A stretch of DNA of 64,000 bases from an uncultured delta proteobacterium (GTDB taxonomy: Bacteria > Desulfobacterota > Binatia > Bin18). This document shows, in pieces, positions 3,723-62,128 of this stretch. Made by a program: the position numbers and the translations under genes. The first letter of the stretch is position 1, and each line of letters opens with the position of its first letter. The stretch covers positions 2,589 to 66,588 of the forward strand of contig CAVTCR010000057.1 of the NCBI GenBank assembly GCA_963733195.1, given 5' to 3'. The notes beneath the pieces are model-generated. The model was not told the DNA's origin. It did no database searches and saw only the letters and a list, made by a program, of their open reading frames with translations.

Positions 3723-4818
3723 TATTGCAATACGCCCCTACGAATTCATGGAACAACCGCGACTTGCCTAACCCTGGCTCCCCCATTACGCCGACGACTT
3801 GGCCGTGCCCGGCTTTGGCTTGTTCCAACGCTACCTTCAGCTGTTCCATCTCGCTCTGCCGTCCGACAAACCGTGTTAGCCCTCGTCGTGCTGCTACTTC
3901 AAACGCGTGCGTAAGGCTCCCACACCCAGCACTTCGTAGATGTGCAGCGGTTCCTCTACTCCCTTAATCTGCGTGGGGCCCAGCTCCTTGAACGCAAAGT
4001 AGCCATCGGTGAGACGATGCGTGTAGGTTGAGACGACGATCGTGCCGGGAGTGGCGAACTGTTCCATGCGCGCCGCTAGGTTGGTCGAGTGGCCCACCGG
4101 CACGTAGTCCGCATGCAAGTCGTCTTTACGAATCGAGCGTAGCACCACTTCGCCTGTGTTTACCCCTACCCGCATCAACAGCGGGCGGATAGCCCTTTCG
4201 CCGCGTAACGTATCCGCATAGCGCCGCATTTCTTCTTGCATGCGTAGCGCGGCATAGAGCGCGCGTTGGGGATGATCTTCATGGGCCAGCGGCGCGCCGA
4301 ACAGGGCAAAGATGCCATCCCCCAAGGCTTGCGCGACATAGCCCTCATACTGATGTATGGCGTCCATCATGAGCTGCAGCGCAGGATCAATAATCGCCCG
4401 CGCCTCTTCGGGATCGAGTCCTTCGATCAACGCCGTCGAGCCTTTGAGATCGGCAAAGAGGGCCGTAATCGTCTTGCGTTCACCCTCCGTCAGCGAGACC
4501 GCACGAATGCGCTCGGCCAGATGGGCAGGCGTGTAGTCGATGGGTCTAGGGTCTGGGTCTGGTGTCTCGCGTCTGGGGACGGGGAGGCTTTGACTCTGGA
4601 CTCTGGACCCTAGACTCTGGACTGCTTTGACCGACCCACACCAACACTTTACCATCCTCATCTACAGCGAGTCGCTTGGCCTCTATGATTTCGGCAGTGA
4701 GGTCCGCAAGATAATCATCCTCCAAATCAAAGCGCCGCTTCAACGCGCGATACGTCACCCGCCCGTCTCGTTGTAAGAGACCAATGATTTGTGCAAGCAG
4801 ATCATCGAACGTTGGCAT
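3723..4818 (-). pseudogene. 5' portion of the same regulator gene: N-terminal domain, low-complexity linker, class III nucleotidyl cyclase domain, start of AAA domain
   Basis: ORF 4546..4818 (MPTFDDLLAQIIGLLQRDGRVTYRALKRRF...) shifts frame inside a GGGTCT/GGACTCT tandem repeat (4541-4640) into ORF 3894..4661, which holds the cyclase domain (ITALFADLKGSTAL...GDGIFALFGAP). After a TAG at 3891 the reading continues in another frame as FVGRQSEMEQLKVALEQAKAGHGQVVGVMGEPGLGKSRLFHEF (AAA Walker A) up to the IS4 end. Confidence 0.6.
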
Positions 4819-9290: not shown

Positions 9291-9320
9291 TTGACAGATA
9301 CAAAGCAACAGCAGAATATC
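9291..9320 (+). promoter_or_regulatory. sigma70-like promoter of cyclase paralog 1 (TTGACA-N18-AATATC, CAGCAG before the -10)
   Basis: TTGACA at 9291-9296, 18-nt spacer ending CAGCAG, AATATC at 9315-9320. The same architecture sits upstream of the other paralogs. Confidence 0.45.
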
Positions 9321-9341
9321 TCTTCCCAGGAAAGCGAAACG

Positions 9342-11769
9342 ATGCCCACACACACCACGTCGGGTGGCATGGAACGCAAACTGGCCGCCATCTTTAGCAC
9401 GGATGTCGCAGGCTACAGCCGCCTCATGGGCGACGATGAAGAAGCAACCATCCGCACCCTCACAGCCTATCGCGACTGTGATCTCCTCCCTCATCCAGCA
9501 CATCGTGGCCGAGTGGTCGATTCCCCGGTGATAATCTGCTGGCCGAGTTCGCCAGTGTGGTCGATGCCGTGCGCTGCGCGGTCGAAATCCAACACGCACT
9601 CAAAGTGAAGAATGCCGAGTTGCCTGAACATCGGCAAGATGCAGTTTCGCATCGGCATCAACCTGGGCGATGTGATCGTCGAAGGCGAGCGGCTCTACGG
9701 CGATGGGGTCAACATCGCCGCGCGACTGGAAAGCTTAGCGATCCCGGCGGTATCTGTATCTCTGGGACGGTCTACGACCATGTCGAGAACAAACTTGCGC
9801 TGAACTACGAGTATCAGGGCGAGCAGACGGTCAAGAACATCGCCAAGCCGGTGCGAACGTATCGGGTAGTGATGGATGAAGCCGCAGCGGCCCTGGCCGA
9901 GCAAGCCGTGCTTCGACAAGCTCAGCACCGTAGCCCAGATGAAGCGCAGCGGAATCTCGGAAACACACCGGGTCCTGGATTGCGCTCCGCTCCATCCAGG
10001 CTACTTCCTGTGCCCGCGATGGGACATGTGGCAGGGCTGCTGCTCATCGCGGCAGCAATCGTAACCGTATGGTATATTTCTCGTTCCCCACTCAGTCCTC
10101 AGTCCTCAGCACTCAGTCCTGACGCCGCGCCAGCGGCGCTGCCGCTCCCCGACAAACCCTCCATCGTCGTCCTGCCCTTCGACAACATGAGTAAAGATCC
10201 CGCGCAGGACTACTTCAGCAACGGTATCACCGAAGTGCTCACCTCTGACCTCTCCCGCATCTCCAGCCTCTTCGTCATCGCCCGCAACACGGCCTTCACG
10301 TACCAGGGGAAAGCGGTGAATATCCAAGCCGTGGGGAAAGAACTGGGCGTACGGTACGTCCTGGAAGGCAGCGTCCAGAAGGCGGGGGAGCAAATCCGGA
10401 TCGTGACCCAGTTAATTGATACCACGACCGGCGGGCACCTGTGGTCGCAGCGCTACGACCGTCCGCTGCAAGACCTCTTCGCGCTCCAAGATGAGATCGT
10501 GCAGAAGATCGTGACCACGCTGAAGCTGCAGCTCACGTTGCAAGAGCAAGGGTACGTCGTGCGCAAACACACCGACAACCTGGAGGCCTACGATGCCTTC
10601 TTGCGCGGGCTGGAGTATCATTTACCGCTTCACGAAAGAGGCCAATGCCCAGGCGACGGCAGCTGTTTGAGAAAGCCATTGCGCTGGACCCACAGTATGC
10701 GGAGGCGTACGCGTTGCTGGGTTAGACCTACTGGATAGAGTGGGTCTTTCGCTGGAGCGCGGACCCCCAGACCATGGAGCGTGCGTTGGCGCTCGCGCAA
10801 CAGGCTCTTGCCCTGAATGATTCCCTGCCGACAGCCCATTCGCTCTTGAGCATCGTCTATGCCCAGAAACAGCAGTATGACCAAGCTATAGCCGAGGGCG
10901 AACGGGCGGTCGCTCTCGATCCCAACTATGCGGACAGCTATGCCGTACAGGCGGAGGTGCTGAACTTCGCGGGCCGGCCAGAGGAGGCTCTGCAGTCAGT
11001 GGAGCAGGCGATGCGGCTCAACCCCCGCTGTCCACCCTGGTACTTATACTAGGTTGGGCTTGGCCTACCGCATGACCGGGCGGTATGCCGAGGCGATCGC
11101 CACGCTGAAGGAAGTCATCAGCCGGGACCCCAATTTTATCTATGCCCACCTTCAGCTGGCTGGCAGCTACCTATGGCAGTGGATCGCTCAACAGAGCCCA
11201 GCTGCCCAGACGTTGGAGCCGGCAGTGGCGGCGGGGCAACGGGCCCTGGCCCTCAATGACTCCCTCCACTGGAACCACATAGTCTTGGGCTCTATCTATC
11301 TCTACCAACAGCAGTATGACCAGGCCCTGGCGGAGATGGAGCGGGCCGTGGCCCTCGCTCCTACTGAGGCGGGGAGCTATGCGGCTCTGGCGGAGGTGCT
11401 GAGCTATATGGGCAGGACGGAGGACGCCCTGGAGGCCGCCGCACAGGCGCTGCGCCTGAAGCCCATTATTGTGGACGCCCACTTAGACAGCGTCGGCGCT
11501 GCCTATGCCGTGGCCGGGCGGCCACGAAGAGGCGACTTGCCCCCTTGCAGCGTTATATCAGCCGCTATCCCAACATACTGCGCTGCCCATCTCATGCTGG
11601 CAGCGGTCTACAGCGAGTTAGGCAAAGAGCCGAGGCGCGAGCCGAGGTCGCAGAAGTGCTGCGGCTCAATCCTAAGTTCTCACTGGAGGTTCACAAGAGA
11701 GAATGCCGATCAAAGATCCAGCGGTGTTGGAGCGGCATATTGCGGCGTTGCGCAAGGCAGGACTCAAAT
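9342..11769 (+). pseudogene. Cyclase family paralog 1: class III nucleotidyl cyclase - TM - TolB-N-like periplasmic region - TPR; multiple frameshifts
   Basis: ORFs 9198..9608, 9557..10738, 10774..11052 and 11054..11815 are in different frames. Motifs: MERKLAAIFSTDVAGYSRLMGDDEEATIRTL; LPLPDKPSIVVLPFDNMS...YFSNGITE...RYVLEGSVQKAGEQIRIVTQLIDTTTGGHLWSQRYDRPL; TPR repeats. Ends at the conserved ...RKAGLK stop. Confidence 0.7.
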
Positions 11770-11770
11770 A

Positions 11771-11990
11771 ATGGAGAGTGGAGAATTGAAAATTAAGAAT
11801 GGGGAAACAAGCTGAAGGCTGAAGGCTGGAGGGGGAAATGAAGAGAGATGAAGGGAAAACGAAGAATTAAAAGTGATAAAGAATGAATGCGGAATGATGA
11901 ATACATTAGTAGTCAGTAGGCTCAGAATGCTGAATTATGAATGCAGAATGATGAGTGAAAGAAAAACTCGTGATCTTCCATTCATCGTTC
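11771..11990. repeat. GA-rich repeat block with an internal inverted copy (hairpin-capable)
   Basis: GAATGAATGCGGAATGATGAATAC ... TTCCATTCATCGTTCATCATT are inverted partners. GGCTGAAGGCTGGAGG units are also present. Confidence 0.5.
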
Positions 11991-14042: not shown

Positions 14043-14268
14043 GTCATTGCGAGTTGTCCATAGCGCTGACGCTAAGCCTTCAAGTAAAAACGGGACACAT
14101 GCTCGTCCCCAGGCTCTGCCTGGGGACGGAATGAGACGGAGTCTCCTGACTACTGCCGTTCCAGGCAGAGCCTGGGACGGAGGACTGAAGATTTGTTTCT
14201 GAGCAGCGCAGCGAAGCAATCTTTGCCGAAAAGAGATTGCTTCGTCGCCTGCGGCTCCTCGCAATGAC
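14043..14268. mobile_element. MITE-like composite element: 11-bp terminal inverted repeats enclosing a REP hairpin pair and a 12-bp-stem hairpin
   Basis: GTCATTGCGAG (14043-14053) and CTCGCAATGAC (14258-14268) are inverted repeats. Inside are REP hairpins at 14106-14126 and 14159-14178, plus GCGAAGCAATCT...AGATTGCTTCGC. Confidence 0.45.
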
Positions 14269-16796: not shown

Positions 16797-16863
16797 TCAG
16801 GCTCTGCCTGGGCACGCACTGCCTGGTAGGTTCCGTTACTCTTGTGCCCAGGCAGAGCCTGGT
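16797..16863. repeat. REP hairpin pair (CTCAGGCTCTGCCTGGGCAC / GTGCCCAGGCAGAGCCTGG)
   Basis: Two imperfect palindromes in inverted orientation, about 30 nt apart. Same family as the RAYT-flanking REPs. Confidence 0.6.
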
Positions 16864-16931
16864 TATGCGGAAGACTCCATGCTAGAGCTATGAGCATGAG
16901 CGTAGCGACGAGCCATACGCCATCAAGCGAG

Positions 16932-20691: not shown

Positions 20692-22637
20692 ATGGAGCGC
20701 AAACTCACTGCCATTCTCAGTGCCGATGTCAAAGGCTACAGCCGCCTCATGGGCGAGGATGAGGAGGCCACCATCCGCACCCTCACGGCCTATCGGCGAA
20801 GTGATGACTACGCTGATCCAGCCAGCATCGCGGCCGGGTCGTCGACTCGCCCGGCGATAACATGCTGGCCGAGTTCGCCAGCGTGGTGGATGCCGTGCAA
20901 TGCGCAGTCGAAATCCAACAAGACGCTCAAAGTCAGAAAATGCGGAGTTGCCGACCGATCGCAAGATGGAGTTTCGCATCGGCATCAACTTGGGCGATGT
21001 GCTTAGTCGAGGGCGAGCGGCTCTATGGGGACGGGGTCAACATCGCCGCACGGTTAGAAGGCTTAGCCGAGCCGGGCGGCATTTGCATCTCGGGCACGGT
21101 GCACGAACAAGTCAAGAACAAGCTGGCCTTGCAGCTACGAAGATCTGGGCGAACAGCAGGTCAAGAACATCGCCGAGCCGGTGCGGGTGTGGCGGGTACG
21201 ATGGGAGACGGCAATCAAAGGCAGAGGACTCGGCAAATCAAAAGGCAAAAGGCACAAGGGCAAAAGACAGAAAAAGTTGTCAGTCGTCAGTTCTCAGTTG
21301 TCAGTCCCCAGCCCCCACGCCGAAGCCGAATCGCACTGATTATCATAGGACTTCTCATTGCTGTCGGGGTCTTGGCCTTCTCGTTTCTTTCCCCATTCAT
21401 CACTCATCATTCATCACTCATCACTCAGGAGGCGCAGCCTCCGTCGCTGCCCTTGCCCGACAAACCCTCCATCGTCGTGCTGCCCTTCGTCAACATGAGC
21501 GAAGATCCCAAGCAGGAGTATTTCAGCGACGGGCTCACCGAGGACCTCACCTCCGCTCTCTCGAAGATCTCCAGCCTGTTCGTCATCGCTCGCAACTCGG
21601 CCTTCACCTACAAAGGCAAAGCGGTGAAAGTGCAAGACGTGAGCAAGGAGTTGGGCGTGCGGTATGTGCTGGAAGGCAGTGTGCGCAAGGCTGACAACCA
21701 GGTGCGGATCACGGCGCAGTTGATCGATGCCACCACCGGCGGTCACTTGTGGTCCGAGCGTTACGACCGCCCCCTACAGGACATCTTTGCCCTGCAAGAT
21801 GAGGTCGTACAGAAGATCGTGACGACGCTGAAACTCCAGCTCACGTTGCAGGAGCAAGGGATTCTGGTGCGCAAGACCACGGACAACCTGGAGGCCTATG
21901 ACTACTACTTGCGCGGGAGGGAGCATTTTAATCGCTTCACGCAAGAGGCCAATGCGCAGGCCCGGCAGATGTTTGAGAAAGCCCTTGAGCTGGACCCACA
22001 GTATGCGGAGGCGTACGCCTTCCTGGGTTGGACCTACTTTAGGGAGTGGGGCTTGCAATGGAGTCAGGACCCCCAGACCCTGGAGCAGGCGTTTGCGCTG
22101 GCGCAAAAGGCCGTGGCCCTGGATGACTCCCTACCCCAGGCCCACGTGGTATTGGGCGCTGTCTATCTGTGGAAAAAGCAGCATGACCAGGCCATCGCCG
22201 AGGCAGAGCGGGCCATTGCCCTCGATCCCAACTATCGCTGAGGCTATGCGTGGCTGGGGGAGATCTGAACTGTGCGGGGCGGCCGGAGGAAGCCATCGGG
22301 TTGATAGAGAAGGCGATGCGCCTCAACCCCCATTATCCGCCTTTCTACTTATTCTTCTTAGGCGAGGCCTACCGCTTGACGGGGCGGTATGAGGAGGCGA
22401 TTGCAGCTTACAAGAGAGCCCTCACCCGCAACCCCGATTTTCTGCCTGCCCACCTTACCTGGCTGCCATCTACAGTGAGTTGGGCCGGGAGGAGGAGGCC
22501 CGGGCGGAGGTGGCAGAAGTCCTGCGGATCAAGTCCCAAGTTCTCTCTGGAGGTTTTGAGGCAGAGGCTCGCCCTATAAAGATCCAGCGGTATTAGAGCG
22601 CATTCTTGCCGCCCTGCGCAAGGCGGGGCTGAAGTAA
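20692..22637 (+). pseudogene. Cyclase family paralog 2: class III cyclase - TM - TolB-N-like - TPR; frameshifted in the cyclase domain and the C-terminal TPR
   Basis: ORFs 20692..21006, 20862..22241 and 22250..22579. MERKLTAILSADVKGYSRLMGEDEEATIRTL. TM plus LPLPDKPSIVVLPFVNMSEDPKQEYFSDGLTEDL...RYVLEGSVRKADNQVRITAQLIDATTGGHLWSERYDRPL. Conserved ...LAALRKAGLK stop. Confidence 0.7.
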
Positions 22638-22765
22638 ATGAAGAATGAAAAATGGAGAGTGAAGACTGGGAAGAGAGGCTTAAGGCTGAAGGCTAAAGGG
22701 AGGAGGAAATGAAGAATGAAGAGTAAGAAGAGAGGAATGAGTACTGAGTGACGAGAGACAGGATA
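22638..22765. repeat. GA-rich repeat copy
   Basis: ATGAAGAATGAAAAATGGAGAGTGAAGACTGGGAAGAGAGGCTTAAGGCTGAAGGCTAAAGGG...GGAATGAGTACTGAGTGA. Confidence 0.5.
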
Positions 22766-28276: not shown

Positions 28277-30273
28277 ATGAAGGTGCCTACGCATACATCG
28301 GTTGGCATGGAACGCAAGCTCGCGGCGATCTTCAGCACCGATGTCGCGGGTTACAGTCGCCTCATGGGCGACGATGAAGAAGCCACCATCCGCACCCTTA
28401 CTGCCTATCGTACACTGATTTCCTCCCTGATCCAGCAGTACCGTGGCCGGGTGGTCGATGCGCCCGGCGATAACCTGCTGGCCGAGTTTGCCAGTGTGGT
28501 CGATGCCGTGCGCTGTGCGGTCGAGATCCAACACGCACTTAAAGAGAAGAACGCCGAGCTACCTGAGCATCGCCAGATGCAGTTTCGCATCGGCATCAAC
28601 TTGGGCGATGTGATTGTCGAGGGCGAACGACTTTATGGTGATGGCGTCAACATCGCCGCGCGGCTGGAAAGTCTAGCGACCCCGGGCGGCATTTGTATCT
28701 CAGGGACGGTGTATGACCAGGTCGAGAACAAACTGGTGCTGAACTACGAATATCAGGGCGAGCAGACGGTCAAGAACATCGCCAAGCCGGTGCGGGTGTT
28801 TCGCATCCTGCTAGAGTCCGATGCTGCTTCCTCAGACAATCAAGCCGTGCTTCGACACGCTCAGCACGAACGGACACCGACTCCGGTCACCCTGAGTCCT
28901 TCGACAAGCTTCGAGGACAGGCTTTATCGAAGGGTGCTCAACTGAAACGCAAGGGGGGACTGTTGCTGGCTGGGCTGCTGCTCATCGTGGCAACAATCGT
29001 AGCAGTCCGGTATTTTTCTCGTCCACCTCTCAGTCCTCAGCCCTCAGTACTCGTCACTGAGGAGGCGAAGCCTCCGTCGCTTCCCTTGCCCGACAAACCC
29101 TCCCTCGTCGTGCTGCCCTTCGTCAACATGAGCGGAGACCCCAAGCAGGACTATTTCAGCGATGGCATCACTGAAGACCTCACCACGGCCCTCTCGCAAA
29201 TTTCCAGTCTGTTCGTCATCGCCCGCAACTCCGCCTTCACCTACAAGGGCAAAGCCGTCAAGGTGCAGGACGTCGGGCAGAGAACTGGGCGTGCAGTACG
29301 TGTTGGAAGGCAGCGTGCGCAAAGCCAACGACCAGGTGCGGATCACCGCGCAGTTGATCGATGCGGCGACAGAGTCTCACCTCTGGGCGCAGCGGTATGA
29401 CCGTCCACTGAAGGACATCTTTGCCCTGCAAGACGAGATCGTGCAGAAGATCGTGACGACGTTGAAGCTGCAGCTCACCTTGCGGGAGCAAGGGTACCTG
29501 GTGCGCAAGACCACGGACAACCTGGAGGCCTATGATGCTACTTGCGTGGGCTGGAGGCATGGAACCGCTACACGAAAGAGACCAATGCCCAGGCCCGGCA
29601 GCTGTTTGAGAAAGCGATTGCGCTGGACCCGCAGTATGCCGAGGCGTACGCGAGGCTGAGTCGAACACTCTCCACGGAGTGGGTCTATGGCAATGGAGTC
29701 AGGATCCTCAGACGCTGGAGCGCGCGTTGGTCCTGGCGCAACAGGCCGTTGCCTTGGATGACTCCTTGCCTGGAGCCCATGAGGTATTGGCTTTTGCCTA
29801 TCCCTATAAAAAACAACATGAGCAAGCCATTGCGGCAGCCAAGCGGGCCATTGCTCTTGCTCCCAATGACGCGGAGGGCTATGCGAATTTGGGGCACATT
29901 TTGATCTTTGCCGGGCAGCCAGAGGAAGCCATTGAGCTTGATCGAGAAGGCGATGCGCCTCAACCCCCGCTATCCGTTCCACTACTTATCCTTGCTCGGC
30001 ATGGCCTATGTCTTGGCGAGGCGGTATGAGGAAGCGCTCGCAGTCCTGCAGAGCGCCACCTCTCCGCAACCCCAATTTTCTGCCTCCTCATCTTCATTTG
30101 CTTGTCAGCTATAGTGAGCTAGGCCGAGATGCGGAGGCCCGAGCTGAGCTGGCAGAACTCCGGCGGCTCAATCCCAATATTCTCTCTGGAGTGGTATAGG
30201 CGGGTGATGCTTCAAAGATCCAGCGGACTTGGAGCGGTATCTTGCCGCCCTGCGCAAGGCGGGGCTGAAATAA
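28277..30273 (+). pseudogene. Cyclase family paralog 3: intact class III cyclase domain ORF (222 aa) followed by frameshifted TM - TolB-N-like - TPR part
   Basis: ORF 28277..28945 has a complete cyclase domain (MERKLAAIFSTDVAGYSRLMGDDEEATIRTL...GDGVNIAARLESLATPGGICISGTVYDQV). ORFs 28963..29400, 29162..29659, 29679..30029 and 30008..30199 continue the TM/TolB-N-like/TPR part in shifting frames. Conserved ...LAALRKAGLK stop at 30271. Confidence 0.7.
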
Positions 30274-30325
30274 TGGAAAATGGAGAATTAAAAATTAAAA
30301 ATGAAGAATGAGCACTGAGGAAAAA
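30274..30325. repeat. GA-rich repeat copy
   Basis: TGGAAAATGGAGAATTAAAAATTAAAAATGAAGAATGAGCACTGAGG. Confidence 0.45.
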
Positions 30326-34037: not shown

Positions 34038-34710
34038 TTAGCGCGCAGAAATCTGCACCAATGTCTCTCGCAGCTTTGCTGCAATGTCCTTGGCAAGAAC
34101 CAGATCGCTGATCATCGCGACTGCATCTGCACCGGCATTGAGGGTAGCGGGAGCGCGTTCAGTGGTGATCCCACCAATCGCCACGATTGGTAAGCGTACT
34201 ACAGCACGGATTGCACGCAACTGATCAAGGCCACGAGCTAGTGTAGCCGGTGGCCTTGGTGGTTGTGCCGTACATTGGACCGAACCCGATATAGTCCGCA
34301 CCGTCACGTTCGGCAGTTTGTGCTTGTTGTGGATCATGGGTAGACACGCCGATAATCCTATGTGGGCCGAGTACTTTGCGTGCGGCTGTAAGGGGGAGAT
34401 CTTCCTGGCCGACATGAACTCCGTCGGCATCGACGGCAAGTGCAATGTCTGCCCGATCATTCACGATGAACAAGCATCCAGAGCAACGGCATATCTTGCG
34501 TACTTCTTGTGCGATCACGAGAAAATCGCGGGACGGAACGTCTTTCGCCCGCAGTTGCAGTATCTTCGCCCCACCAGCACAGAGCTTTTCGGCGATCGCG
34601 ACGAACGATAACTCCGATCGGCCAAGTGTGTCGGCGATGGTGTAGAGAGGGCTTGGGAACGAAAAAAGGGGTCGGGGGTCGGGGGTCGGAGGTCGGTTTT
34701 GTTCATTCAT
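34038..34710 (-). pseudogene. thiE: Thiamine-phosphate synthase ThiE, frameshifted
   Basis: ORF 34225..34710 (...IVNDRADIALAVDADGVHVGQEDL...IGFGPMYGTTTKA) and ORF 34038..34460 (...LDQLRAIRAVVRLPIVAIGGIT...GADAVAMISDL) overlap by 235 nt in different frames. The N-terminal 15 codons are encoded by the G-rich repeat. Confidence 0.75.
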
Positions 34711-34765
34711 AGGTATCCGTTTTCTTTTCTTACTGATCCCTGACCCCTAACCCCCGACCCCTGTC
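34668..34765. repeat. G-rich GGGGTCGGGG repeat forming a long inverted-repeat hairpin
   Basis: GGGGTCGGGGGTCGGGGGTCGGAGGTCGG (34668-34700) and its near reverse complement CCTGACCCCTAACCCCCGACCCC (34740-34765). Related copies at 4541-4640, 50866-50900 and 58030-58062. Confidence 0.55.
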
Positions 34766-36189
34766 TTCTTCACTTCAATCTTCAGATCGGTGATTTTCTT
34801 GCGTAACGTATTGCGATTGATACCGAGTACATCAGCGGCCTTCAATTGGTTGCCGCTGGTGTATTCCAATGTTAACTCAATGAGCGGCTTCTCAACTTGC
34901 TCAATGATCGACGTGTACAAATCCGCCGGTGCGACACCAGAAGATTGTTGGAAATAGGGTTTAAGTTTCCGACGGATGACTTCTTCGAGCGACAGTTCAG
35001 CCAGGTCTTCCGGAAGAGACGCCTCTTCCTGTGGAAGGGACAGGTCTGAGAGCGTAAGCATACGTCCTGGGGCAAGGACGGCTGCTCGCAGTAAGACATT
35101 CTCTAACTCGCGAATGTTTCCTGGCCATGGGTACTGGAGGAGCAAGGCCTGCGCGTCAGGAGAAACGCCAGTGACCGATGTTCCCATTGATCGATTGATT
35201 TTATCGAGAAAGTAGGTCGTCAATTCGGGAATATCTTCGTATCGCTGCCGCAACGAAGGCAGCGTGATGGGAACAACCCGGAGCCGGAAATAGAGGTCTT
35301 CGCGGAAGAGTTGTTCGCGGACGGCGGTCGCAAGATCTTTATTCGTAGCCGCAATGATACGAACATCGCATTTGATCGTGTCGCGTCCACCAAGACGGGT
35401 GAACTCGCGCTCTTGAATGACACGCAACAGTTTTGCTTGCAACACCAGTGGCATGTCACCGATCTCGTCTAGGAACAGCGTTCCGCCCGCCGCTTGCTCA
35501 AATTTTCCAATCCGTCGCTCGATTGCACCAGTGAAGGCTCCACGTTCATGTCCGAAAAACTCGCTTTCAAGCAGGTCCATCGGGATCGCAGAGCAATTGA
35601 TCCCAACAAACGGTGCACGCCACCGAGTAGAATAGCGGTGAATCACTTTGGCAATGAGCTCTTTGCCAGTGCCACTTTCGCCCTGAATGAGGACGGTAGC
35701 ATCGTTCTTCACCACGCGACCGATGACCTTATAAATTTCTTGCATCGCCGCGCTGTGGCCGATGATCTGTTCGGTTTTCCCTGGTGTGGTCAGCACAGGT
35801 AGAACGACTTCTTCCGTGAGATGCTGTGCCTCACAGGCGCGGGCAGCAAGTGCCTTCACTTCTTCCAAGTCGAAGGGTTTGGGAAGATAGTCAAAGGCTC
35901 CCCGCTTCATTGCTTCGACGGCATTCGTGAGCGTGGTTTGCCCGGTCATAATAATGATGGATGTTGGCAGGTGCATTTCCTGGACGCGGAGGAGAAGATC
36001 AAGTCCGCTCAACTCCGGCATACGAATATCGACAAAGGCAAGAGCAAATGGTTGCGCTTGTAAGCGTTCCCAGGCGAATTTCCCTGAAGGGACAGTTTCG
36101 ACCGTATAGCCTTCCTCACTCAGAGTGTCAGCGAGGACGCGGCGGATGAGGTCTTCATCGTCGGCAATGAGAATAGCAGGGCGTGTCAT
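34747..36189 (-). CDS. sigma54-dependent response regulator (NtrC/AtoC family): REC - AAA+ sigma54 activation - Fis-type HTH
   Basis: 480 aa. D-box REC (ILIADDE...DIRMP), GESGTGKE Walker A, GAFTGA motif (ERGAFTGA), C-terminal HTH ([13 protein letters not shown]). Confidence 0.9.
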
Positions 36190-55017: not shown

Positions 55018-56406
55018 CTACCGTTTCCCCTCGCTGAGCTTGTTGATGTCATAGCGTTCTGCGATCTCGGCAGCGGTCGGTTGGGGATAGACAATTTCAT
55101 AGGCAGAAAAAATTGTCGCCTGTTCCTTCTGGAAATCGATAATGGTGAAGCCGATGTTGCGCGGCAAACGCTGTCCGCGATCGACATCAGGCTGGCTTGA
55201 GTCTTCTGACCAGCCATGCAGCATGTCGATAATTTTCCACAGTTTTCCCTGCTTATCAAAAATCAACACCATGGCAGTTTCATACGTCTGTGCATCCCAG
55301 AAGTAGATCTTGCTACCGTAGGTACGATCGACAATCGGCGTCTGCTCCAGCACGGCACATGGACGGAGTTCCCAACGATCATTCGGAAGCCAGCCGTTGG
55401 GGCCGTAGAACCGCGCATAGGGATGTTGCGAGTTCATCACATGCAGAATGGGTTTCCAGCCGAGGAACTTCCATTGATGATCCAACACCCGACCAGAGAA
55501 GCCGGTGAAGTCATCTAACGTCATCTCTGTACCACCAACGTGATCGTCACGTTCAGTGAGAGAGAGCCGGCGCGTTTTCCGGAGCTGTGGTAAGAATCCC
55601 CACGCGTCGTCTTGTTTGCGCGGATCATCATAACGATATACGAGAAACCGCTGTCCACGCACATCATACGGTTCGAGAAATTCGACATAGTCTTTGTATT
55701 CAAACTCTCCCGCGCCTTCGATGGGGAGCATGTGACTGGCATTGCCTGCCTGCGAGAGGTGATTGTGGTACACGCGTTGATACAGTGCGACGAGGTGTCG
55801 AATCGCTTTCCCGCCACCTTGGATCAGATCGGGTGGAAACCCGGAGAGTTGCGAACCAGAACCGCCTTTGGCCATCAGCGCCCCAAGGTACCGTCTGACA
55901 TGCATGCCGTAGTTCTGCCAACGATAGTTGAAATTCCAGGCTGCTTTGAGTCCCGCCTGTGGATCACCTGGAGTGATTAACGCACGGGAAAACGGTTGGC
56001 CGGCGACATATCCTTCGAGCGCGCCATCGCCAGCGAGTTTAGTTTGACCAGAGTATTGTTCTGTTGCAGCAAGGTAGTCTGGATGTGGCGTATAGTTTCC
56101 AGAGGGAGAGACACGAAACTCAGCCTCGGAGAAATTAAACTCGTCAATGTAACGTGGAGGAAGAAAAGGTCGGAGCTTATCGAGGTCAGCCTGTTTTAGT
56201 ACCTCCCCTTCTTTGAATTTCGGCGGGGTTTCGAGGTTAGTTTCGATCCATTTCTGAATATCCTCACGGGTTGGCAATGTTGGTCCGTCAGCATGAGCAC
56301 TACATGTGAGAACTGCTCCGAGGAAGTAGAAAAGAACGAACAACCTAGGACTACCAACGGTCACATAGGAACGCAAGGCACCCTCCAACACAATTGATAA
56401 TGGCAC
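55018..56406 (-). CDS. Secreted protein with signal peptide, possibly DUF1329-like
   Basis: 462 aa. N-terminal hydrophobic signal (LFVLFYFLGAVLTCSAHA). Family assignment is from memory of sequence patterns only. Confidence 0.4.
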   Translation of the reverse strand: MPLSIVLEGALRSYVTVGSPRLFVLFYFLGAVLTCSAHADGPTLPTREDIQKWIETNLETPPKFKEGEVLKQADLDKLRPFLPPRYIDEFNFSEAEFRVSPSGNYTPHPDYLAATEQYSGQTKLAGDGALEGYVAGQPFSRALITPGDPQAGLKAAWNFNYRWQNYGMHVRRYLGALMAKGGSGSQLSGFPPDLIQGGGKAIRHLVALYQRVYHNHLSQAGNASHMLPIEGAGEFEYKDYVEFLEPYDVRGQRFLVYRYDDPRKQDDAWGFLPQLRKTRRLSLTERDDHVGGTEMTLDDFTGFSGRVLDHQWKFLGWKPILHVMNSQHPYARFYGPNGWLPNDRWELRPCAVLEQTPIVDRTYGSKIYFWDAQTYETAMVLIFDKQGKLWKIIDMLHGWSEDSSQPDVDRGQRLPRNIGFTIIDFQKEQATIFSAYEIVYPQPTAAEIAERYDINKLSEGKR

Positions 56407-56475
56407 TCAGGGTAACTGAGCTGTCAGGGGCATGCAATGTCACAAGAAGGAGAGGGGGGCTTCTTCCCTGCGAGT

Positions 56476-57630
56476 TCAGAGCGCCAGCTGAGAGCTGTTG
56501 ATCTGTTCCTCGATAATCCATTCGCCTGTACGGCTCAGAGTGATACTTTCTGGGCTTAGATCCGTAGGAAGCTGTGGTGCCGTTTGCGCTGCTCTTTCAA
56601 AGGCACTGTGGCTTTCTAGTCCGATCGCCTTCAAGACTGGAGTGTGGATCTCTTGCTGATGAATCTCGGCATTATAAAAGCTGGTCCGCAATACTGCACG
56701 GAGAAACGCGCGGGCATTCGGGATAAGCCGTATGGCTGGCATCTCAAAGCCACCAATAACCTTGGCAAGTACCTCAAACGTGCATGAAGGAAAATACTTA
56801 ATCGCGCTTTGCACGATGCGCAAGAAGAGACCATGGTGGGCAATCTCGTCAAGTGCGACAAGACGACAAGCTTCCGAAGCCCCTACTTCAAACCCGCGCT
56901 CTTGTTCTGCAGGTGTTAACGTAGTGGATAAGCCATACTCCTGACGGATACGGAGTCGGAGCTTCTGATAGTGGAAGTAGGTTGAGCGTTCTTGGAACAT
57001 GGCATAGGCCGCTGCTCCGATAGGAGTATCGAGGCCTGCATGCTGCAGCACATTCCAACGCGTGTTCTGAGCTTTCGTCATATAGACTTGCAGTTGTTCC
57101 TCCGTACGAGCACCGGAGTGTTTGAGCACGACCTCCCAGGTGACGCCGTGACGGGCTTCTTCCGCTCCCCACTGTAACTGCAAGTTGCGTCGCGTGCGAT
57201 TCTGCTGAAAGATCGCTAACCCTTCCTGGACATAGTCGCCGACGTATTCTTCGATACCGAAGAAACCTTCGATCAAGTCCACAGTTTCGGGACTGAGCTG
57301 GTGTCCCAACTGGCGTATTTCTTCCAGTGGAAGGTTGTGCCACGGCGACCAATTGCGAAGTGACATGGCGCGGCCATAGTACTCAATATAGTGTTCTGTC
57401 ACCTCACGGTCGAAGGCACGCTGGCGTGCTTCTGCTGTCCAGGGGCCAGTGATGATTTCCGGGAGGTCGCGCTGTGGCGAAGGGGTCTGAGTAAACATCA
57501 GGGGAGTGTCGCTCCGTTCAGCGTGTCCCAGTGCGCTTATTGTCACAAGGATGCGCTGGCGATGATGGAAGGTAATCGCAGCCAGGTCCCACTCGGTTGA
57601 CGAGAAAGGGAGGCTTCGTGGACGCATCAC
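56476..57630 (-). CDS. Soluble di-iron acyl-ACP desaturase family protein
   Basis: Two EExxH-type di-iron motifs (WGAEEARHG and LDEIAHHG). The real start may be the internal Met near 57498. Confidence 0.7.
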   Translation of the reverse strand: MMRPRSLPFSSTEWDLAAITFHHRQRILVTISALGHAERSDTPLMFTQTPSPQRDLPEIITGPWTAEARQRAFDREVTEHYIEYYGRAMSLRNWSPWHNLPLEEIRQLGHQLSPETVDLIEGFFGIEEYVGDYVQEGLAIFQQNRTRRNLQLQWGAEEARHGVTWEVVLKHSGARTEEQLQVYMTKAQNTRWNVLQHAGLDTPIGAAAYAMFQERSTYFHYQKLRLRIRQEYGLSTTLTPAEQERGFEVGASEACRLVALDEIAHHGLFLRIVQSAIKYFPSCTFEVLAKVIGGFEMPAIRLIPNARAFLRAVLRTSFYNAEIHQQEIHTPVLKAIGLESHSAFERAAQTAPQLPTDLSPESITLSRTGEWIIEEQINSSQLAL

Positions 57631-58065
57631 CTTGAGTGACTTTTACAAAAGTGAAATGCATAAGGAAAGTTTGATCTGACGCCGCAGAATATCAGGTCGG
57701 CCTGTCCGGGGCAATCCGGCAAATTCTTATAACTGAGAGACCGCTGCAATAGCACCATTCTGTGATGACTATTCCACCTACTTTTAGTTCTCTTTCTTGT
57801 AATAGCCAGGCATAGGAGAAGATGCTTGATCTTTTTTCTTGGTCTTCTGTTTACCATGCTGCATTCTGGATTTAAATGGTACGAATCAGCTTTGCACTGT
57901 ACCTAAGCTGCAGATTATCAGGTCATTTAAGGAAAACAGTCCTTCGATGGCTCAATCAGTCAATCGCTTAATGACTCAATTCTTCTAACGGGCGATCTCA
58001 ACCGCTTTCAGGAAGCACGCTTCGGCTTCTGCTTGGGGGGCGAAGGCCAGGGGGTCGGGGATCGG

Positions 58066-58272
58066 TCACTGATAACTGGTCGTGAGCACCGTGTCACTCA
58101 CGATTGTTCCTGCCCACACGGCATCCAAGAGTTCATCTTTGGTCACCAAGCAATCCGGATGTTCGACCAGATAGCGTAACACTGCAAAGGTCTTAGGCCG
58201 CAAAGCTATCAGCTCGTCCGCGTGCCAGAGCTGCTCAGTCTCTAGGTCCAGATGAAAGGGAGGAAAAACAAG
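58066..58272 (-). pseudogene. Truncated N-terminal winged-helix (OmpR/CadC-type trans_reg_C) domain of a regulator; remainder of the gene absent
   Basis: ...FPPFHLDLETEQLWHADELIALRPKTFAVLRYLVEHPDCLVTKDELLDAVWAGTIVSDTVLTTSYQ*. The stop abuts a G-rich repeat at 58030-58062. Confidence 0.5.
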
Positions 58273-58413
58273 GCCATCCGTTTCTCCATGTCCTCTGCTT
58301 ACCAACTCTGACACCGAAATACCACCGAAATAGCACCGTTTTGTTATGACTGCACACGCGGAGCAGTGCATAGTCTCCCTGACAGGCAGGATCTCACACC
58401 TAGGGGATGACCT

Positions 58414-58614
58414 ATGACACACATTACTATACCGGCACCACCGCTGCTTCCAGAGTGGGCCTTTGTCGTGCAGTTCCACGAAGGGACGGGCATGGAACAT
58501 GATCGTATGGAGGGCCGCGTCGAGCATATCGTGTCGGGCCAGGCAATACGGTTTCACTCACTGGAGGAGTTGTTGACGTTCATGACGCGAGTCCTGACTG
58601 CTCTGCACACATAG
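58414..58614 (+). CDS. Hypothetical small protein
   Basis: 66-aa ORF divergent from the winged-helix fragment. No motif. Confidence 0.25.
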   Translation: MTHITIPAPPLLPEWAFVVQFHEGTGMEHDRMEGRVEHIVSGQAIRFHSLEELLTFMTRVLTALHT

Positions 58615-58622
58615 CCTCAGCA

Positions 58623-59252
58623 ATGCGTAAGAGTGAGGTGCACCTGAGAACAAACACTCCCAGATCAGCATTGCGGAAGTTTCAGAACGTTGTGGATCAA
58701 TCAGCAGAAAGTAGAACACTCGATGACCGCACTACACAAAAAATACGAACTGGTCTGGCAGCGGTGGTTTTGCTCCTCGCCAGCCAAGATGCCAATGCAG
58801 CTTCGGCTGCGGATACCTGTCCAATGGAAAACAAACTACCCATTGCCCTTGACCGCGCTCAACAACATGAGCGCGAACCCCACGAATTCGCTGAGGTGGC
58901 GATGGTTGCCGGTTCATTCGAGCGCACGCAGATCATAGAGGATGTAGTGGAGTACGCTTTTCTGCTCAAAGTCGGTCCGGGCGAGCATGACCTGATCCGC
59001 TTGCAAAGGCTTCTGGCCACTGGCTTGTCAACCTCCTCGCTTCAGGATTTGATCCAGCACTACAGACAACGTGGGAACTGGAGCGACTTCTATGCCGCTT
59101 TGGGTGTGCTTATGACCCGATTGGGGCAGCGCTGGCCGATGCACAGCGTTATCATAACGAAAGATCAGGATATTGGACGCATCTTGATAATGGTAGGCAT
59201 ACATGAGCTTTGGCTCAGCCTGGCTTATGTCTACGAACTCGCGGAAGGATAA
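58623..59252 (+). CDS. Hypothetical secreted protein
   Basis: 209 aa. Signal-like segment LAAVVLLLASQDANAASAA. Confidence 0.35.
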   Translation: MRKSEVHLRTNTPRSALRKFQNVVDQSAESRTLDDRTTQKIRTGLAAVVLLLASQDANAASAADTCPMENKLPIALDRAQQHEREPHEFAEVAMVAGSFERTQIIEDVVEYAFLLKVGPGEHDLIRLQRLLATGLSTSSLQDLIQHYRQRGNWSDFYAALGVLMTRLGQRWPMHSVIITKDQDIGRILIMVGIHELWLSLAYVYELAEG

Positions 59253-59414
59253 CGTAGACCCGTCAGGAAATTGTAATGAGCCTGAGACGAAGCCCCGCAC
59301 CGCTGACCGTTGATCGACTTGCAGTGAGAGGAGGATGCCCTCACCGGAAGCGATGGTGGCGTGCAACGCTTTCTCCAGGTCTTGAACGTACTCAGGGAAG
59401 GTGGCAGCGGGCAT
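59028..59414 (-). CDS. Putative TA toxin, TumE/DUF6516-like
   Basis: 128 aa. ...LMYAYHYQDASNILIFRYDNAVHRP...SGHKHT motif recalled for TumE-like proteins. Overlaps the upstream small gene by 23 nt. Confidence 0.35.
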   Translation of the reverse strand: MPAATFPEYVQDLEKALHATIASGEGILLSLQVDQRSAVRGFVSGSLQFPDGSTLSFREFVDISQAEPKLMYAYHYQDASNILIFRYDNAVHRPALPQSGHKHTQSGIEVAPVPTLSVVLDQILKRGG

Positions 59415-59688
59415 CCTCTAGCTCTCGTAGTTCCACTTCTAAGCCTGCTAATAATTTAGCTTCTCCGGCCCACTCTACATACTCCAAGTCTCCCCCAGTG
59501 AGGTCCTCGGCTGTCATATCATGTAGAAAATGTGCCGTGTCTTTCCCATAACGTGTTTCGAACTCCGTCAGTCGCCGCTTGGTCCGCTCGATGCTTGCAC
59601 GTAGGCGTTCTTTGTAAGCATCAAGCGCTTGCAGGACTGTCTGTGCACCTTCCCGATCGCGTAGTTCAATCACCAATTGCACACTCAT
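59392..59688 (-). CDS. Small acidic protein, putative antitoxin partner
   Basis: 98 aa (MSVQLVIELRDREGAQTVLQALDAYKERLRASIERTKRRLTEFETRYG...). Called as partner from the overlap. Confidence 0.3.
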   Translation of the reverse strand: MSVQLVIELRDREGAQTVLQALDAYKERLRASIERTKRRLTEFETRYGKDTAHFLHDMTAEDLTGGDLEYVEWAGEAKLLAGLEVELRELEDARCHLP

Positions 59689-59762
59689 AGCACTCTCCTT
59701 GTTTCTATAGTTCTCCTCTTACGTCCTTTGGGCAACACCCAGCGCCCAGCCTCGCTCCGCCT

Positions 59763-59942
59763 CTCGATTCACGACAATTCTTCCAGCAGCGCCTTCGCCT
59801 CTTGCAAATCCTTCGTTATCAACTTCCCTGGATGCTCAACGAGATAACGCAGCACAGCGAAGGTCTTAGGCCGTAAAGCGATTGCCTGGTCATCGCGCCA
59901 GAGCTGTTCGCTGCTCAGGTCCAACCGAAAGGGTGGGAAGTA
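59763..59942 (-). pseudogene. Second truncated copy of the winged-helix N-terminal fragment (59 codons)
   Basis: MYFPPFRLDLSSEQLWRDDQAIALRPKTFAVLRYLVEHPGKLITKDLQEAKALLEELS*. Same upstream motif as the 58066-58272 copy. Confidence 0.5.
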
Positions 59943-60074
59943 CATCTCCTACCTGTCTCCATGCCCGCTTCTTATCATACCTTGACATCGAAATACCACC
60001 GAATGAGCATCGTTTTGGCATGACTGTGCGCCTCGCTTTCGCTATGCTTCGAGGAGCAGAAAGGAGTCGCCACT

Positions 60075-60518
60075 ATGAGCAATATCCGTATCATCCTCGA
60101 TCCCCACGCTCCGGACAGTAGCAAACAATTTGTTCAGATCGCCCTCGACTTGTATAACGTGGCGGTCACTGGACTGGCAGAGTACTACCCCGTCGCGATC
60201 TTTCTCAAGCGCGACAACGAGGAGATTGTTGGCGGCGTGCTCGGCGACATTTGGGGCATGTGGTTACATGTGACGTATCTGTGGGTTGCGGTGCCACTCC
60301 GTCACCAAGGCTATGGCAGCCAATTGCTCCTTGCGGCAGAGCAATACGCGATTGAACGGGGCTGCCAGAACGTCCATCTGGAAACCTTCAGCTTCCAGGC
60401 ACGCCCCTTGTACGAGAAGCACGGTTATGAAGTCTTTGCGCAACTTGATGATTTTCCCCCAGGGCACACGAAGTATTTTCTACGCAAGCAGTTAGGTGGT
60501 AGAACAGCGTCTGTGTGA
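60075..60518 (+). CDS. GNAT-family N-acetyltransferase
   Basis: 147 aa. AcCoA-binding motif (VAVPLRHQGYGSQLL) and a C-terminal Tyr region. Confidence 0.8.
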   Translation: MSNIRIILDPHAPDSSKQFVQIALDLYNVAVTGLAEYYPVAIFLKRDNEEIVGGVLGDIWGMWLHVTYLWVAVPLRHQGYGSQLLLAAEQYAIERGCQNVHLETFSFQARPLYEKHGYEVFAQLDDFPPGHTKYFLRKQLGGRTASV

Positions 60519-60547
60519 CGTACGTTGAATCAAGGAGGGGTAGCTCT

Positions 60548-60790
60548 ATGGACCACACTGTATTTGCCCTGGAACCCTATCTCAAACAGTTGTACTTTTC
60601 CGGCAGCCTCCAACCGACCGAGGATGGGCTTGAGGCACTCCACCGCGCAAGCCTACACGATTCCCTTCGAGAATTTCGATATTTTGCTGGGGCGTGGCAT
60701 TACGCTCGAACCGGCAATGATTTACGACAAGCTCGGGGGCACACTCAGGGCGAACGGAAAATGTATCACGAAAAGTGAAGGAAAGTGCGA
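60548..60790 (+). pseudogene. Arylamine N-acetyltransferase (NAT) 5' fragment, frameshifted and truncated
   Basis: LEPYLKQLYFSGSLQPTEDGLEALHRA in one frame, ...IPFENFDILLGRGITLEPAMIYDKL in another. Only about 80 codons are present before the convergent MFS gene. Confidence 0.45.
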
Positions 60791-60807
60791 CTCCTCTGTG
60801 GTTTGGT

Positions 60808-62128
60808 TTAGTGCTGCGTTTTTGCCTGCTCCATCATGGAGGCAACGACAACTGCTGCCGTTCCCACAAGAGCGATCCCCCCAGCACAGAGATACATGGT
60901 TGAAAAATCGGTTCGCTGCAGTACCTGCCCAAGGCCGATAGCGCTCAGTCCGACCCCGATGTCAAACGCCATCATCAAGGTTGCGAGCGCAGGACCACGA
61001 TCGTGGATGGTGGAACGGTCGACAATCCACGCCATAATTGCCGGATGCACAGCGCCAAAGCCGATCCCCTGCAAAACCGCAGTCCATAACAACCCGGCCA
61101 TTGATGTCGTATATGCTAAGACAACCATCGATACCGCGAGAAAAAACATGCCAGGAATAATTACCGCAGAGCGGCCAAAGCGATCAGACAGCCGACCAGA
61201 TAACGGGCGGAGAACAACAACGACGATCGAATAGACAGTAAAAAAGAGGCCAGCATTGCCGAGATTATGGTGTTGGACAAACAACGGGAGAAACGAAACG
61301 ATCGCACCAAAGGTCATCGTCATACACATGGCAATAAAGCCAGGAAACAAGGCCACACGGCTAAAGAGTGCTGGTCGGGCAGCTGCGGGTTGACCGGCCA
61401 TGCGCGCGAGACTGATGTGGATCATGGACTAGTTGCACTAACAGTAAGCACGCCAGCGCAAGACCGGCAGAAGTCCAGAAGAGACCAGCGAAACCCAACC
61501 AGCCAGCAAGAGTGATACCTAACGCGGGACCAATCGCCATGGACAAATTCATTGCCATGCCGTAATAACCCATCGCTTCGCCACGCCGGGCTGGAGGCGC
61601 GAGGTCAGCAATAAACACACTGCCGGCAGTCGTATAAATGGCAATTCCGATGCCATGAAAGAATCTCAGCGCAAGCATGACAGGTACTGATGTGGCCTGA
61701 GTGTAGAGGGCGGAGAAGATAACGTAGATCAACGCGCCGAGTGCCAAGCAGGATTTGCGGCTCCACGTATCTACGAGCCGGCCCGAAAGCGGGCGACTGA
61801 GTACCGCAGAAACCGCAAATGCCCCCATAATCATGCCAACTTGTGATTCTGCGCCGTGCAACTCTTGGACAACAAACAACGGCAAGACTGCGAACAGCAA
61901 GAACATACTGCCCGAAAAAAGAAAGGTACTGAGACACACCAGCAAGAAATCGCGCGTGAACAGCGCTTCCGGCTCTGCGGAAGGTGTAGCGATTTGCGGT
62001 TGCGGAGTGTGTGGTGAAAGAGATTGGGCAGGTTGAGACACTGCGGGTGAGTGTATCTGTGGCTCTGTGGTGAAACAAGGGACCTTTTTAAATACAGAAT
62101 GTAGAGCAGAATGATGAATAGAATGCAC
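60808..62128 (-). pseudogene. MFS transporter, frameshifted into two half-ORFs
   Basis: ORF 61361..62128 has the N-terminal six helices and a Pro/Gln-rich leader. ORF 60808..61425 has the C-terminal six helices. They overlap by 65 nt in different frames. Confidence 0.7.

Follow-up and report, generated by a model that had tools for sequence, protein, structure and literature searches.

The DNA analysed here is a stretch of 64,000 nucleotides (nt) from contig CAVTCR010000057.1 (assembly GCA_963733195.1, positions 2,589 to 66,588) of an uncultured member of the Binatia; this whole stretch is called the window. Its minus strand carries two remnants of regulatory genes, relics A and B, each of which begins with part of an OmpR/PhoB-type winged helix-turn-helix (wHTH) domain and is preceded by a conserved upstream element (copies A and B) with 11-nt direct repeats. 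A partial third copy of the element (copy C) lies between relic A and a desaturase gene and is conserved in L001. Homologous loci in other genomes are given as L numbers, and the features of the locus are listed in Table 1 in window coordinates.

Anatomy of the two relics

Both fragments were taken, in a preliminary description of this DNA, for truncated starts of an OmpR/CadC-type wHTH domain, and both matched Pfam Trans_reg_C (PF00486): relic A over model positions 3-47 of 77 (E 4.9e-8, 33.4 bits, cutoff 26.2) and relic B over positions 2-28 of 77 (E 3.8e-4, 20.9 bits, below the 26.2 cutoff). The coordinates given there for relic A (58066-58272) were retained; those for relic B (59763-59942) were replaced by the limits of its open reading frame (ORF), 59769-59945. 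The relics are 74% identical to each other over 46 amino acids (aa), and their N-terminal parts are 60-70% identical to members of a family of proteins with wHTH, AAA_16 and tetratricopeptide repeat (TPR) regions (60-69% for relic A against full-length homologues, tblastn). A complete wHTH with recognition helix alpha3 and wing is present in neither relic; in the alignment relic B ends before the helix and relic A with its first residues. Both window copies also lack the ATPase and most of the TPR region. Apart from A and B, no further similar sequence and no intact paralogue was found by tblastn in the 64 kb.

The wHTH part of relic A runs as far as the start of the recognition helix (VSDTVL), without the wing, and is followed by TTSYQ and a TGA. 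Beyond this stop the same frame goes on with PIPDPLAFAPQAEAEACFLKAVEIAR, which corresponds to about residues 913-936 of ~1000 in relatives, in the C-terminal TPR region. The tblastn matches of this tail are short and individually weak (E 0.035-0.83; 86% identity to L016 residues 966-979 at E 0.035, 62% to L025 residues 913-936 at E 0.074), collinear, and recurred with 7 of 9 queries. The tail is closed by a TAG after EIAR, where relatives have Q (CAG). The ancestral ATG was put out of frame by the loss of one T from a T-run (T6 to T5), and its frame now meets a stop after 15 codons; in L001 this ATG has kept its frame (MEKRLALFFPPFH). A public 101-aa protein (P0001, MHCSACAVITKRCYFGGISV..., window 58066-58371, minus strand) starts upstream of the predicted operator and reads through the repeat array. 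This annotation of relic A is an artefact that stems from the frameshift behind the ancestral ATG.

In relic B, family residues 1-46 are joined in frame to the C-terminal end of the family, DLQEAKALLEELS, (T)KDLQEAKALLEELS. This tail is 93% identical to L017 residues 978-991 over 14 residues (tblastn, E 0.16; a short match that recurred with five queries). The ORF starts with an ATG at 59943-59945, preceded by AGGAG and used in L084 too, and the B-type ancestral ATG at 59960-59962 is out of frame.

Origin of the relics

Relics A and B are the remains of two old paralogous genes, each internally deleted, that encoded proteins of about 1000 aa composed of an OmpR/PhoB-type wHTH domain, an AAA_16 ATPase of the STAND (signal transduction ATPases with numerous domains) class and a TPR region. 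The undeleted counterpart of relic B was found in L084, which has the gene order of the window (MFS, GNAT, then the wHTH gene). L084 and the window share 94% identity between 62100 and 59808, the latter being exactly the relic B junction, beyond which L084 runs into the AAA_16/TPR body. There the B gene is kept, behind the same predicted operator, to residue ~976 of ~1000, where the contig ends; it is broken by frameshifts. The deletion in relic B removed ~2.8 kb in frame and joined residue ~46 to the last 13-16 residues. Because the junction falls within a short L-[VI]-T-K-D stretch common to the N- and C-terminal regions of family members, the two ends may have recombined at this short, imperfect homology; the point of crossover is placed only approximately, since L084 ends before the 3' end of the gene. 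Relic A lost residues ~64-910 and gained its stop codons and frameshift afterwards.

L001 is 93-98% identical to the window across aligned blocks and carries both relics and copy C. The relics, being shared with L001, are therefore genuine and not assembly artefacts, and they predate the split of these two genomes. Homologues that look like interior deletions or truncations were also noted at L008, L037 and L064 (also L014 and L062); in L008 a complete wHTH is joined to ...VEAEACFQELL, which resembles relic A. Interior decay may be common in the wHTH-AAA_16-TPR family; for L008, L037 and L064 the alternative is an error or collapse between paralogues in the assembly of the metagenome-assembled genomes (MAGs).

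The intact wHTH-AAA_16-TPR family

The intact protein is not a small regulator but a STAND protein of about 1000 aa. Scanning a genome collection yielded 80 homologous loci (582 kb in all), of which 79 upstream regions were analysed. The loci belong to Binatia, Methylomirabilota, Entotheonella, Acidobacteriota and assorted proteobacterial MAGs. Most homologous ORFs have 950-1070 aa and the C-terminal end ...WFTEGFDTxDLQEAKALLEEL (DLQEAKALLEEL). An N-terminal wHTH, a central AAA_16 P-loop ATPase and a C-terminal TPR region are found, for example, in L004, L012, L013 and L017. Two full-length relatives were compared with Pfam: Trans_reg_C was matched at 67-68 bits (positions 3-77), followed by AAA_16 and TPR (MalT-like), and no match to BTAD (PF03704) was obtained after the wHTH at E <= 0.01. 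Relics A and B belong to this family by descent, not as intact genes.

The closest solved structures to the wHTH domain are those of PhoB, OmpR, CadC and ToxR (PDB comparison), and no AfsR or EmbR chain was among its PDB matches. NCBIfam models of HilA/EilA (E 1.1e-14, 53.7 against a cutoff of 589) and CadC (E 2.1e-15, 56.6 against a cutoff of 400) also matched the wHTH. Homology of the AAA_16 and TPR body (residues 118-954) extends over the C-terminal two thirds of TIGR03903 (NCBIfam; E 1.3e-93, 314.8 bits, below the cutoff of 705.75), and the AfsR model matched the TPR region weakly (E 2.3e-10, far below cutoff).

A family of small stand-alone wHTH proteins, suggested by the first protein search, which returned only proteins of 58-116 aa, was ruled out by L002, L085, L084 and the ~1000-aa ORFs. 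The "115-aa" homologue of L002 stops in a low-complexity CAGTAGT linker and the next frame holds the AAA_16 start LVGRDAELAQLHEWLA; an IS110 element interrupts the wHTH gene of L085. A cyclase domain comes after the wHTH in L086. Assignment to an anti-phage STAND system was rejected, PADLOC matches being merely marginal.

The element upstream of relics A and B

The upstream element (~65 nt) consists of a distal box, three 11-nt units (GGTGnTATTTC, the third partly degenerate) and a TGnTAAGnn box placed 6-7 nt before the ancestral ATG. Its conservation at both relics, as reported in the preliminary description, was confirmed: a 44-nt core (58309-58352 against 59983-60026) is 86% identical, and the pattern GGTGSTATTTCGGTGGTATTTCG, with at most three mismatches, occurs in the 64 kb only at copies A and B (0.01 expected). 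The tandem direct repeat reported with it is present, with a unit of 11 nt, not 12, and with three units. Homology between A and B at the DNA level is unbroken; it begins at a CAGTCAT ~65 nt upstream of the ancestral start and reaches codon 46. The upstream sequence is thus also the continuation of a longer homologous segment. Mere continuation without repeat structure had been named as counting against an operator; here the repeats are genuine. The copy A array is the only stretch of the window with a lag-11 self-similarity of at least 16/22. In L084 the GATG/GGTG/GATG units are the same as those of copy B, and the deviations of copy B are therefore specific to the B type and not the result of decay.

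The arrangement TGnTAAG(A/C)n, 6-7 nt, ATG is conserved in A, B, L001, L002, L004, L085 and L086, and the box, weak but TG-extended, may act as a promoter -10 element. A scan for sigma-70 consensus promoters found no canonical promoter or terminator at the motifs; a recognisable -35 element is absent. The distal box was rejected as a -35 element and also as the -10 element of a divergent promoter, its hexamers and spacing not being consistent. A small divergent ORF starting from the box (ATGACT, plus strand) was also discarded, since its conservation across loci is limited to about four codons. In a metagenome scan no match was obtained to the exact 21-nt core TTCGGTGGTATTTCGRTGTCA, for which the collection is incomplete, since the JGI (Joint Genome Institute) contig L085 contains this core.

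Table 1. Positions in the window of the relics, their upstream elements and copy C.
Feature	Position	Strand	Remarks
Copy A, distal box CAGTCATAACAAAAC	58338-58352	minus	read from the sequence; adjoins the first unit
Copy A, array of units GGTGCTATTTC, GGTGGTATTTC, GGTGTCAGAGT	58305-58337	minus	three 11-nt direct repeats
Copy A, extended -10-like box TGGTAAGCA	58296-58304	minus	6 nt before the ancestral ATG
Relic A, ancestral start codon (ATG GAG AAA CGG)	58287-58289	minus	in frame in L001, out of frame in the window
Relic A, ORF	58066-58272	minus	Trans_reg_C match
Relic A, N-terminal wHTH, family residues ~1-63	58084-58272	minus	Pfam and tblastn
Relic A, tail: TGA at 58066-58068, then PIPDPLAFAPQAEAEACFLKAVEIAR in the same frame, then TAG	57985-58068	minus	C-terminal TPR scrap
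Copy B, distal box CAGTCATGCCAAAAC	60012-60026	minus	identical in L001 and L084
Copy B, array of units GATGCTCATTC, GGTGGTATTTC, GATGTCAAGGT	59979-60011	minus	three 11-nt units
Copy B, extended -10-like box TGATAAGAA	59969-59977	minus	by alignment; ancestral ATG at 59960-59962
Relic B, intact 58-aa ORF	59769-59945	minus	Pfam and tail match
Copy C, partial: box AGTCATCACAGAAT, unit GGTGCTATTGC, degenerate unit AGCGGTCTCTC, then TTATAAGAA	57722-57770	minus	local alignment to copy A

The element at homologous loci

An identical or near-identical box and array precede the homologues in L002, L003, L004, L085 and L086. The array of the copy A type was found upstream of the homologues in L001, L002, L003 and L085, and in L004 with exactly one extra 11-nt unit. 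Examination of the upstream regions of the 80 loci revealed the same layout with a different unit in many lineages (GGTGGAATATC, nTTCAATTTnn, CCGTGGAATTT, GGTGTAATTTC and TGTGAGAAAAT). In the 79 upstream regions the best lag-11 match averaged 13.25/22, against ~10 at every other lag from 6 to 18. A match of 18/22 was reached at lag 11 by nine loci and at other lags by none; in control windows its frequency was 0.25%. Ten arrays of this strength exist in the 582 kb of loci, and nine of the ten lie within 200 nt upstream of the wHTH gene. With at most three mismatches, the distal box was present upstream of 14 of the 79 homologues and in 4 of 790 control windows; at the homologues it always stands directly before the first unit.

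A tandem 11-nt array of TTTCGG type was also seen near ~590-aa alphaproteobacterial wHTH-TPR homologues, at L071 6423, L072 6103, L076 6067 and L081 6291, where it lies ~450-600 nt downstream of the gene and not upstream. The array of L076 stands between divergent ORFs and may belong to the promoter of a neighbouring target.

Repeat units and recognition helices

Across paralogues the types of unit sort with the types of recognition helix. Helix DTVLKSCIRELR is found with unit GGTGnTATTTC, GI(L/V)KGYIRDLR with CGGTGGAATAT, xVPxVCIRELR with TTCAATTT and SALKSCVRELR with GGTGTAATTT. Distances between units were correlated with distances between helices when the rest of the domain was controlled (partial Mantel r 0.396; reached by 0 of 2000 permutations). 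Four paralogues from one MAG (L004, L005, L024 and L028) have four different units.

OmpR/PhoB-type wHTH domains bind head-to-tail direct repeats about one helical turn apart, and the phased repeats of the upstream element are of this type, as the preliminary description had proposed. An autoregulatory operator is expected to lie in the gene's own promoter region and to have a unit matched to the DNA-reading residues of the protein; the position of the array agrees with the former and the co-variation with the helix agrees with the latter. The suggestion of an autoregulatory operator made there is strengthened by these sequence comparisons, in which box and 11-nt array stand before intact homologues in many phyla and the unit co-varies with the helix.

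Copy C and the desaturase gene

The third copy, placed at 57742-57775 in the preliminary description, proved to be real and partial, with an extent of 57722-57770; local alignment to copy A gave a score of 43 against 20.6 +/- 3.3 for shuffled sequences, and 0 of 300 shuffles reached it. Copy C has one good unit and lies ~225 nt upstream of the likely ATG of the desaturase gene (57498). No second copy of the operator was found near other homologues (within 4 kb on either side, at most 4/22 mismatches, at 23 other loci whose upstream lag-11 score is 16 or more). That the desaturase gene shares the regulator, as had been proposed from partial copy C, is speculative, and copy C may be debris from the upstream region of A.

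Proposed operator model

Relics A and B are what remains of two wHTH-STAND-TPR genes, and their surviving 5' regions are likely, on the sequence evidence above, to be autoregulatory operator-promoters of the kind known from PhoB and from SARPs (Streptomyces antibiotic regulatory proteins), now orphaned. In this model the wHTH domains of an oligomerised STAND regulator would bind the array side by side, one per unit, the units being arranged head-to-tail with one per helical turn (11 nt). The array would cover the -35 and spacer region, like the pho boxes for PhoB and the afs box for AfsR, so that the gene would regulate itself. With a transcription start near the ancestral ATG, units 2 and 3 would be placed at about -37 to -16. 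Autoactivation is slightly favoured over autorepression. Since relic B is devoid of helix and wing and relic A contains no more than the first residues of the helix, neither can bind DNA, and the operators are orphaned; only an intact paralogue elsewhere in the genome with helix DTVLKSCIRELR could still use the operators of the window.

Several observations weigh against this model. The -10-like box (TAAGnn) has no conserved final T, and the consensus scan called no promoter there. The distal box is conserved and is left without a role. The co-variation of unit and helix is confounded by phylogeny, though the rest of the domain was controlled. Part of each unit is an A/T tract (ATTT or AATTT), so that phased DNA curvature adds to the periodic signal. 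In some lineages (L010, L013) a Shine-Dalgarno-like GGAG follows closely after the array, which may overlap the -10 region; such an overlap would fit repression better than activation.

The operator model can be extended into a doubtful but more far-reaching form. Each paralogue would have a private 11-nt unit read by its own helix, the invariant distal box AGTCATAACAAAAC would serve a further conserved partner as its site, and the operators A and B and partial copy C would have been kept for control of the GNAT, toxin-antitoxin and desaturase genes by a surviving paralogue. If true, this would mean orthogonal pairs of wHTH domain and operator, a readable code of helix-to-DNA specificity and the regulatory reuse of the promoters of dead genes.

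Alternative explanations

The arrays could instead be intrinsic promoter architecture, in which phased A/T tracts curve the DNA or UP-element-like sequence aids RNA polymerase at a promoter lacking a -35 element. An ATTT, AATTT or AATAT tract is present in every unit type, the period is one helical turn and the distal box is A-rich, all of which would suit such an arrangement. However, the part of the unit outside the A/T tract (GGTG, GTTC, CGTG) is the best conserved within an array, varies between paralogues of one genome and tracks the helix; curvature alone would need no such core. Strong arrays are, moreover, almost confined to the upstream regions of this family, and intrinsic architecture is regarded as unlikely.

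Binding of another OmpR-family protein, such as a two-component response regulator, would give an operator without autoregulation. The domains are close and OmpR/PhoB-family response regulators also bind direct repeats of 10-11 bp. Such an arrangement is improbable, because the unit co-varies with the helix of the protein encoded downstream, and four paralogues with four units would need four dedicated response regulators. No consistently adjacent response-regulator gene was noticed, although no systematic search for one was made.

It is quite improbable that relic B is alive, that is, a 58-aa ORF under selection as a small protein, for example as a dominant-negative partner of intact paralogues. 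Its ORF is intact both in the window and in L001, and the differences between them are 8 synonymous to 1 non-synonymous (synonymous differences per site, pS, 0.205; non-synonymous, pN, 0.007). Yet 8 of the 9 differences are clustered in codons 17-34, where L001 mostly agrees with the undeleted orthologue L084 and the states of the window are scattered among other paralogues, and the fragment is without recognition helix and wing. The cluster looks like a short gene-conversion tract, which on these sequences would explain the pattern better than selection. A conversion tract carries the synonymous bias of its donor, and the 8:1 excess therefore needs no selection on relic B; purifying selection was rejected as its cause. 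The tract hints, weakly, that another paralogue once existed in the lineage of the window. The intergenic region between the B operator and the GNAT gene shows 2 differences in 129 nt to L001 and 1 in ~90 nt to L084, other aligned blocks being 93-96% identical; this conservation may be due to the divergent GNAT promoter and not to the operator.

A transcribed cis-regulatory RNA leader would likewise lie immediately 5' of the start codon and be conserved better than the coding sequence, as the element is. It is considered very unlikely, as no Rfam 15 match was obtained in 56000-62000 (E <= 1), folding z-scores were 0.77, -0.03, 0.96 and -0.89, the repeats are direct and without conserved pairing, and an ATG is conserved 6-7 nt after the -10-like box.

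Finally, recent segmental duplication of a module of gene stub and motif, in which upstream conservation would reflect recency only and the operator would have been duplicated together with the stubs, as first proposed, is consistent with the unbroken homology from box to codon 46 but has hardly any probability left: A and B are diverged paralogues of only ~75% nt identity with different deletion end points and tails, their interiors having been lost independently, L084 has the undeleted B gene at the same locus and the element is conserved in distant phyla; by L084 and the different junctions this explanation is effectively refuted.

Neighbouring genes and other features of the window

A probable frameshift divides the MFS transporter gene at 60808-62128 (minus strand) into two ORFs that overlap (60808-61425 and 61361-62128), and together with the relics this gene marks a decaying region. 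A 66-aa ORF at 58414-58614 (plus strand), divergent from relic A, has no Pfam match; its pN/pS against L001 is ~0.23, and it is possibly a genuine small gene. At 80 nt downstream of relic B, the gene of a TumE-family toxin (59028-59414) and a 98-aa partner ORF upstream of it (59392-59688, minus strand) overlap. This module is nearly identical in the window and in L001 (3594-4811), with flanks 93-95% identical. L001 has an ISAZ013-type DDE transposase gene between the TumE module and relic A that is without counterpart in the window.

Further genes of the window are related to the family by their ATPase or TPR regions. The gene at 956-3909 (minus strand) encodes AAA_16 and TPR without wHTH and shares 33-36% identity with the core of the wHTH-STAND family; its match to that core shifts frame after ~1243, with an in-frame stop, and the gene may also be a frameshifted pseudogene. 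Three paralogous genes (9300-11900, 20700-22700 and 28300-30320), with 63-89% nt identity in blocks, gave weaker TPR matches to the family. Motifs such as LMGDDEEATIRTLT suggest that they encode class III cyclase-type proteins with TPR; they share a C-terminal ...AALRKAGLK followed by purine-rich low-complexity sequence, AATGAAGAATGA.... The ~590-aa wHTH homologues of alphaproteobacterial MAGs (L069-L082) have a similar C-terminal end, ...LRDGLRKAGL.

Two kinds of repeat were noted elsewhere in the window. A 27-nt palindromic element, CTCGTCCCCAGGCTCTGCCTGGGGACG, is present in at least six copies (14102, 16790, 27408, 27461, 28166 and 33809; also 14154-14183 and 16847-16877) and has the look of a hairpin repeat of the repetitive extragenic palindromic (REP) type. 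An inverted repeat at 34661-34770 is made up of a G-rich sequence, GGGGTCGGGGGTCGGGGGTCGG, and its C-rich complement, ~35 nt apart.

Comparison with known systems

PhoB binds tandem 11-bp repeats, each with a 7-bp conserved part and a 4-bp A/T-rich part, that replace the -35 element. PhoB/OmpR response regulators are the closest solved relatives of the wHTH domain described here, and the units of the arrays likewise have a conserved core and an A/T-rich part. In contrast to the response regulators, the family has no receiver domain, and its input is presumably nucleotide and ligand sensing by the STAND and TPR regions rather than phosphorylation. HilA and CadC are alike in having an N-terminal OmpR/ToxR-type wHTH and a C-terminal TPR or sensor region, but they are without ATPase and the family scores far below the cutoffs of their models. 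The TIGR03903 kinase/cyclase fusions of thiazole/oxazole-modified microcin (TOMM) systems and cyclase-AAA-TPR proteins have a homologous AAA_16 and TPR body; the output domain of the family is a DNA-binding wHTH, whereas that of the TIGR03903 fusions is a kinase or cyclase.

The large SARPs resemble the family in both protein and site. AfsR of Streptomyces coelicolor is composed of a wHTH, a BTA domain, a NOD/STAND ATPase and TPR, and binds two 11-bp repeats at -40 to -19 (the afs box) that overlap a poor -35 element (PMC10936776). In SARP sites the repeats are spaced by 11 or 22 bp, with 8 bp between the 3' repeat and the -10 element (PMC10936776). The family described here has in common with these proteins the N-terminal OmpR-type wHTH, the STAND-type ATPase and the TPR, as well as head-to-tail 11-bp repeats over the predicted -35 and spacer region with poor core elements. 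The 11-nt period was seen, and when the unit is read as ATTTCGGTGTC its distance to TAAGCA is 8 nt (the -10 assignment being putative). The differences are that BTAD/BTA and sequence matches to AfsR structures are absent, that the ATPase is AAA_16 with no clear NB-ARC, and that large SARPs have an actinomycete range while this family occurs in Binatia, Methylomirabilota, Entotheonella, Acidobacteriota and proteobacterial MAGs. The array, moreover, has three to four units and a conserved distal box and stands on the promoter of the regulator's own gene. The family thus resembles the large SARPs in build but is not a SARP.

The feature of the window is itself ordinary gene decay with preserved promoters, and its two small winged-helix "genes" are deletion relics that are not to be taken for small regulators. 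Text searches of a library of papers found no description of binding sites of this wHTH-STAND-TPR family; the predicted operator layout, with 11-nt units matched to the helix across the family, is apparently unreported and belongs mechanistically to a known kind. The family is large, widespread and experimentally untouched, and the arrays provide binding-site predictions for dozens of uncharacterised regulators. PhoB/SARP-style promoter recognition would in this way be extended beyond actinomycetes and two-component systems, and the paralogues, with their different helices and units, offer natural material on how OmpR-type helices evolve new DNA specificities.

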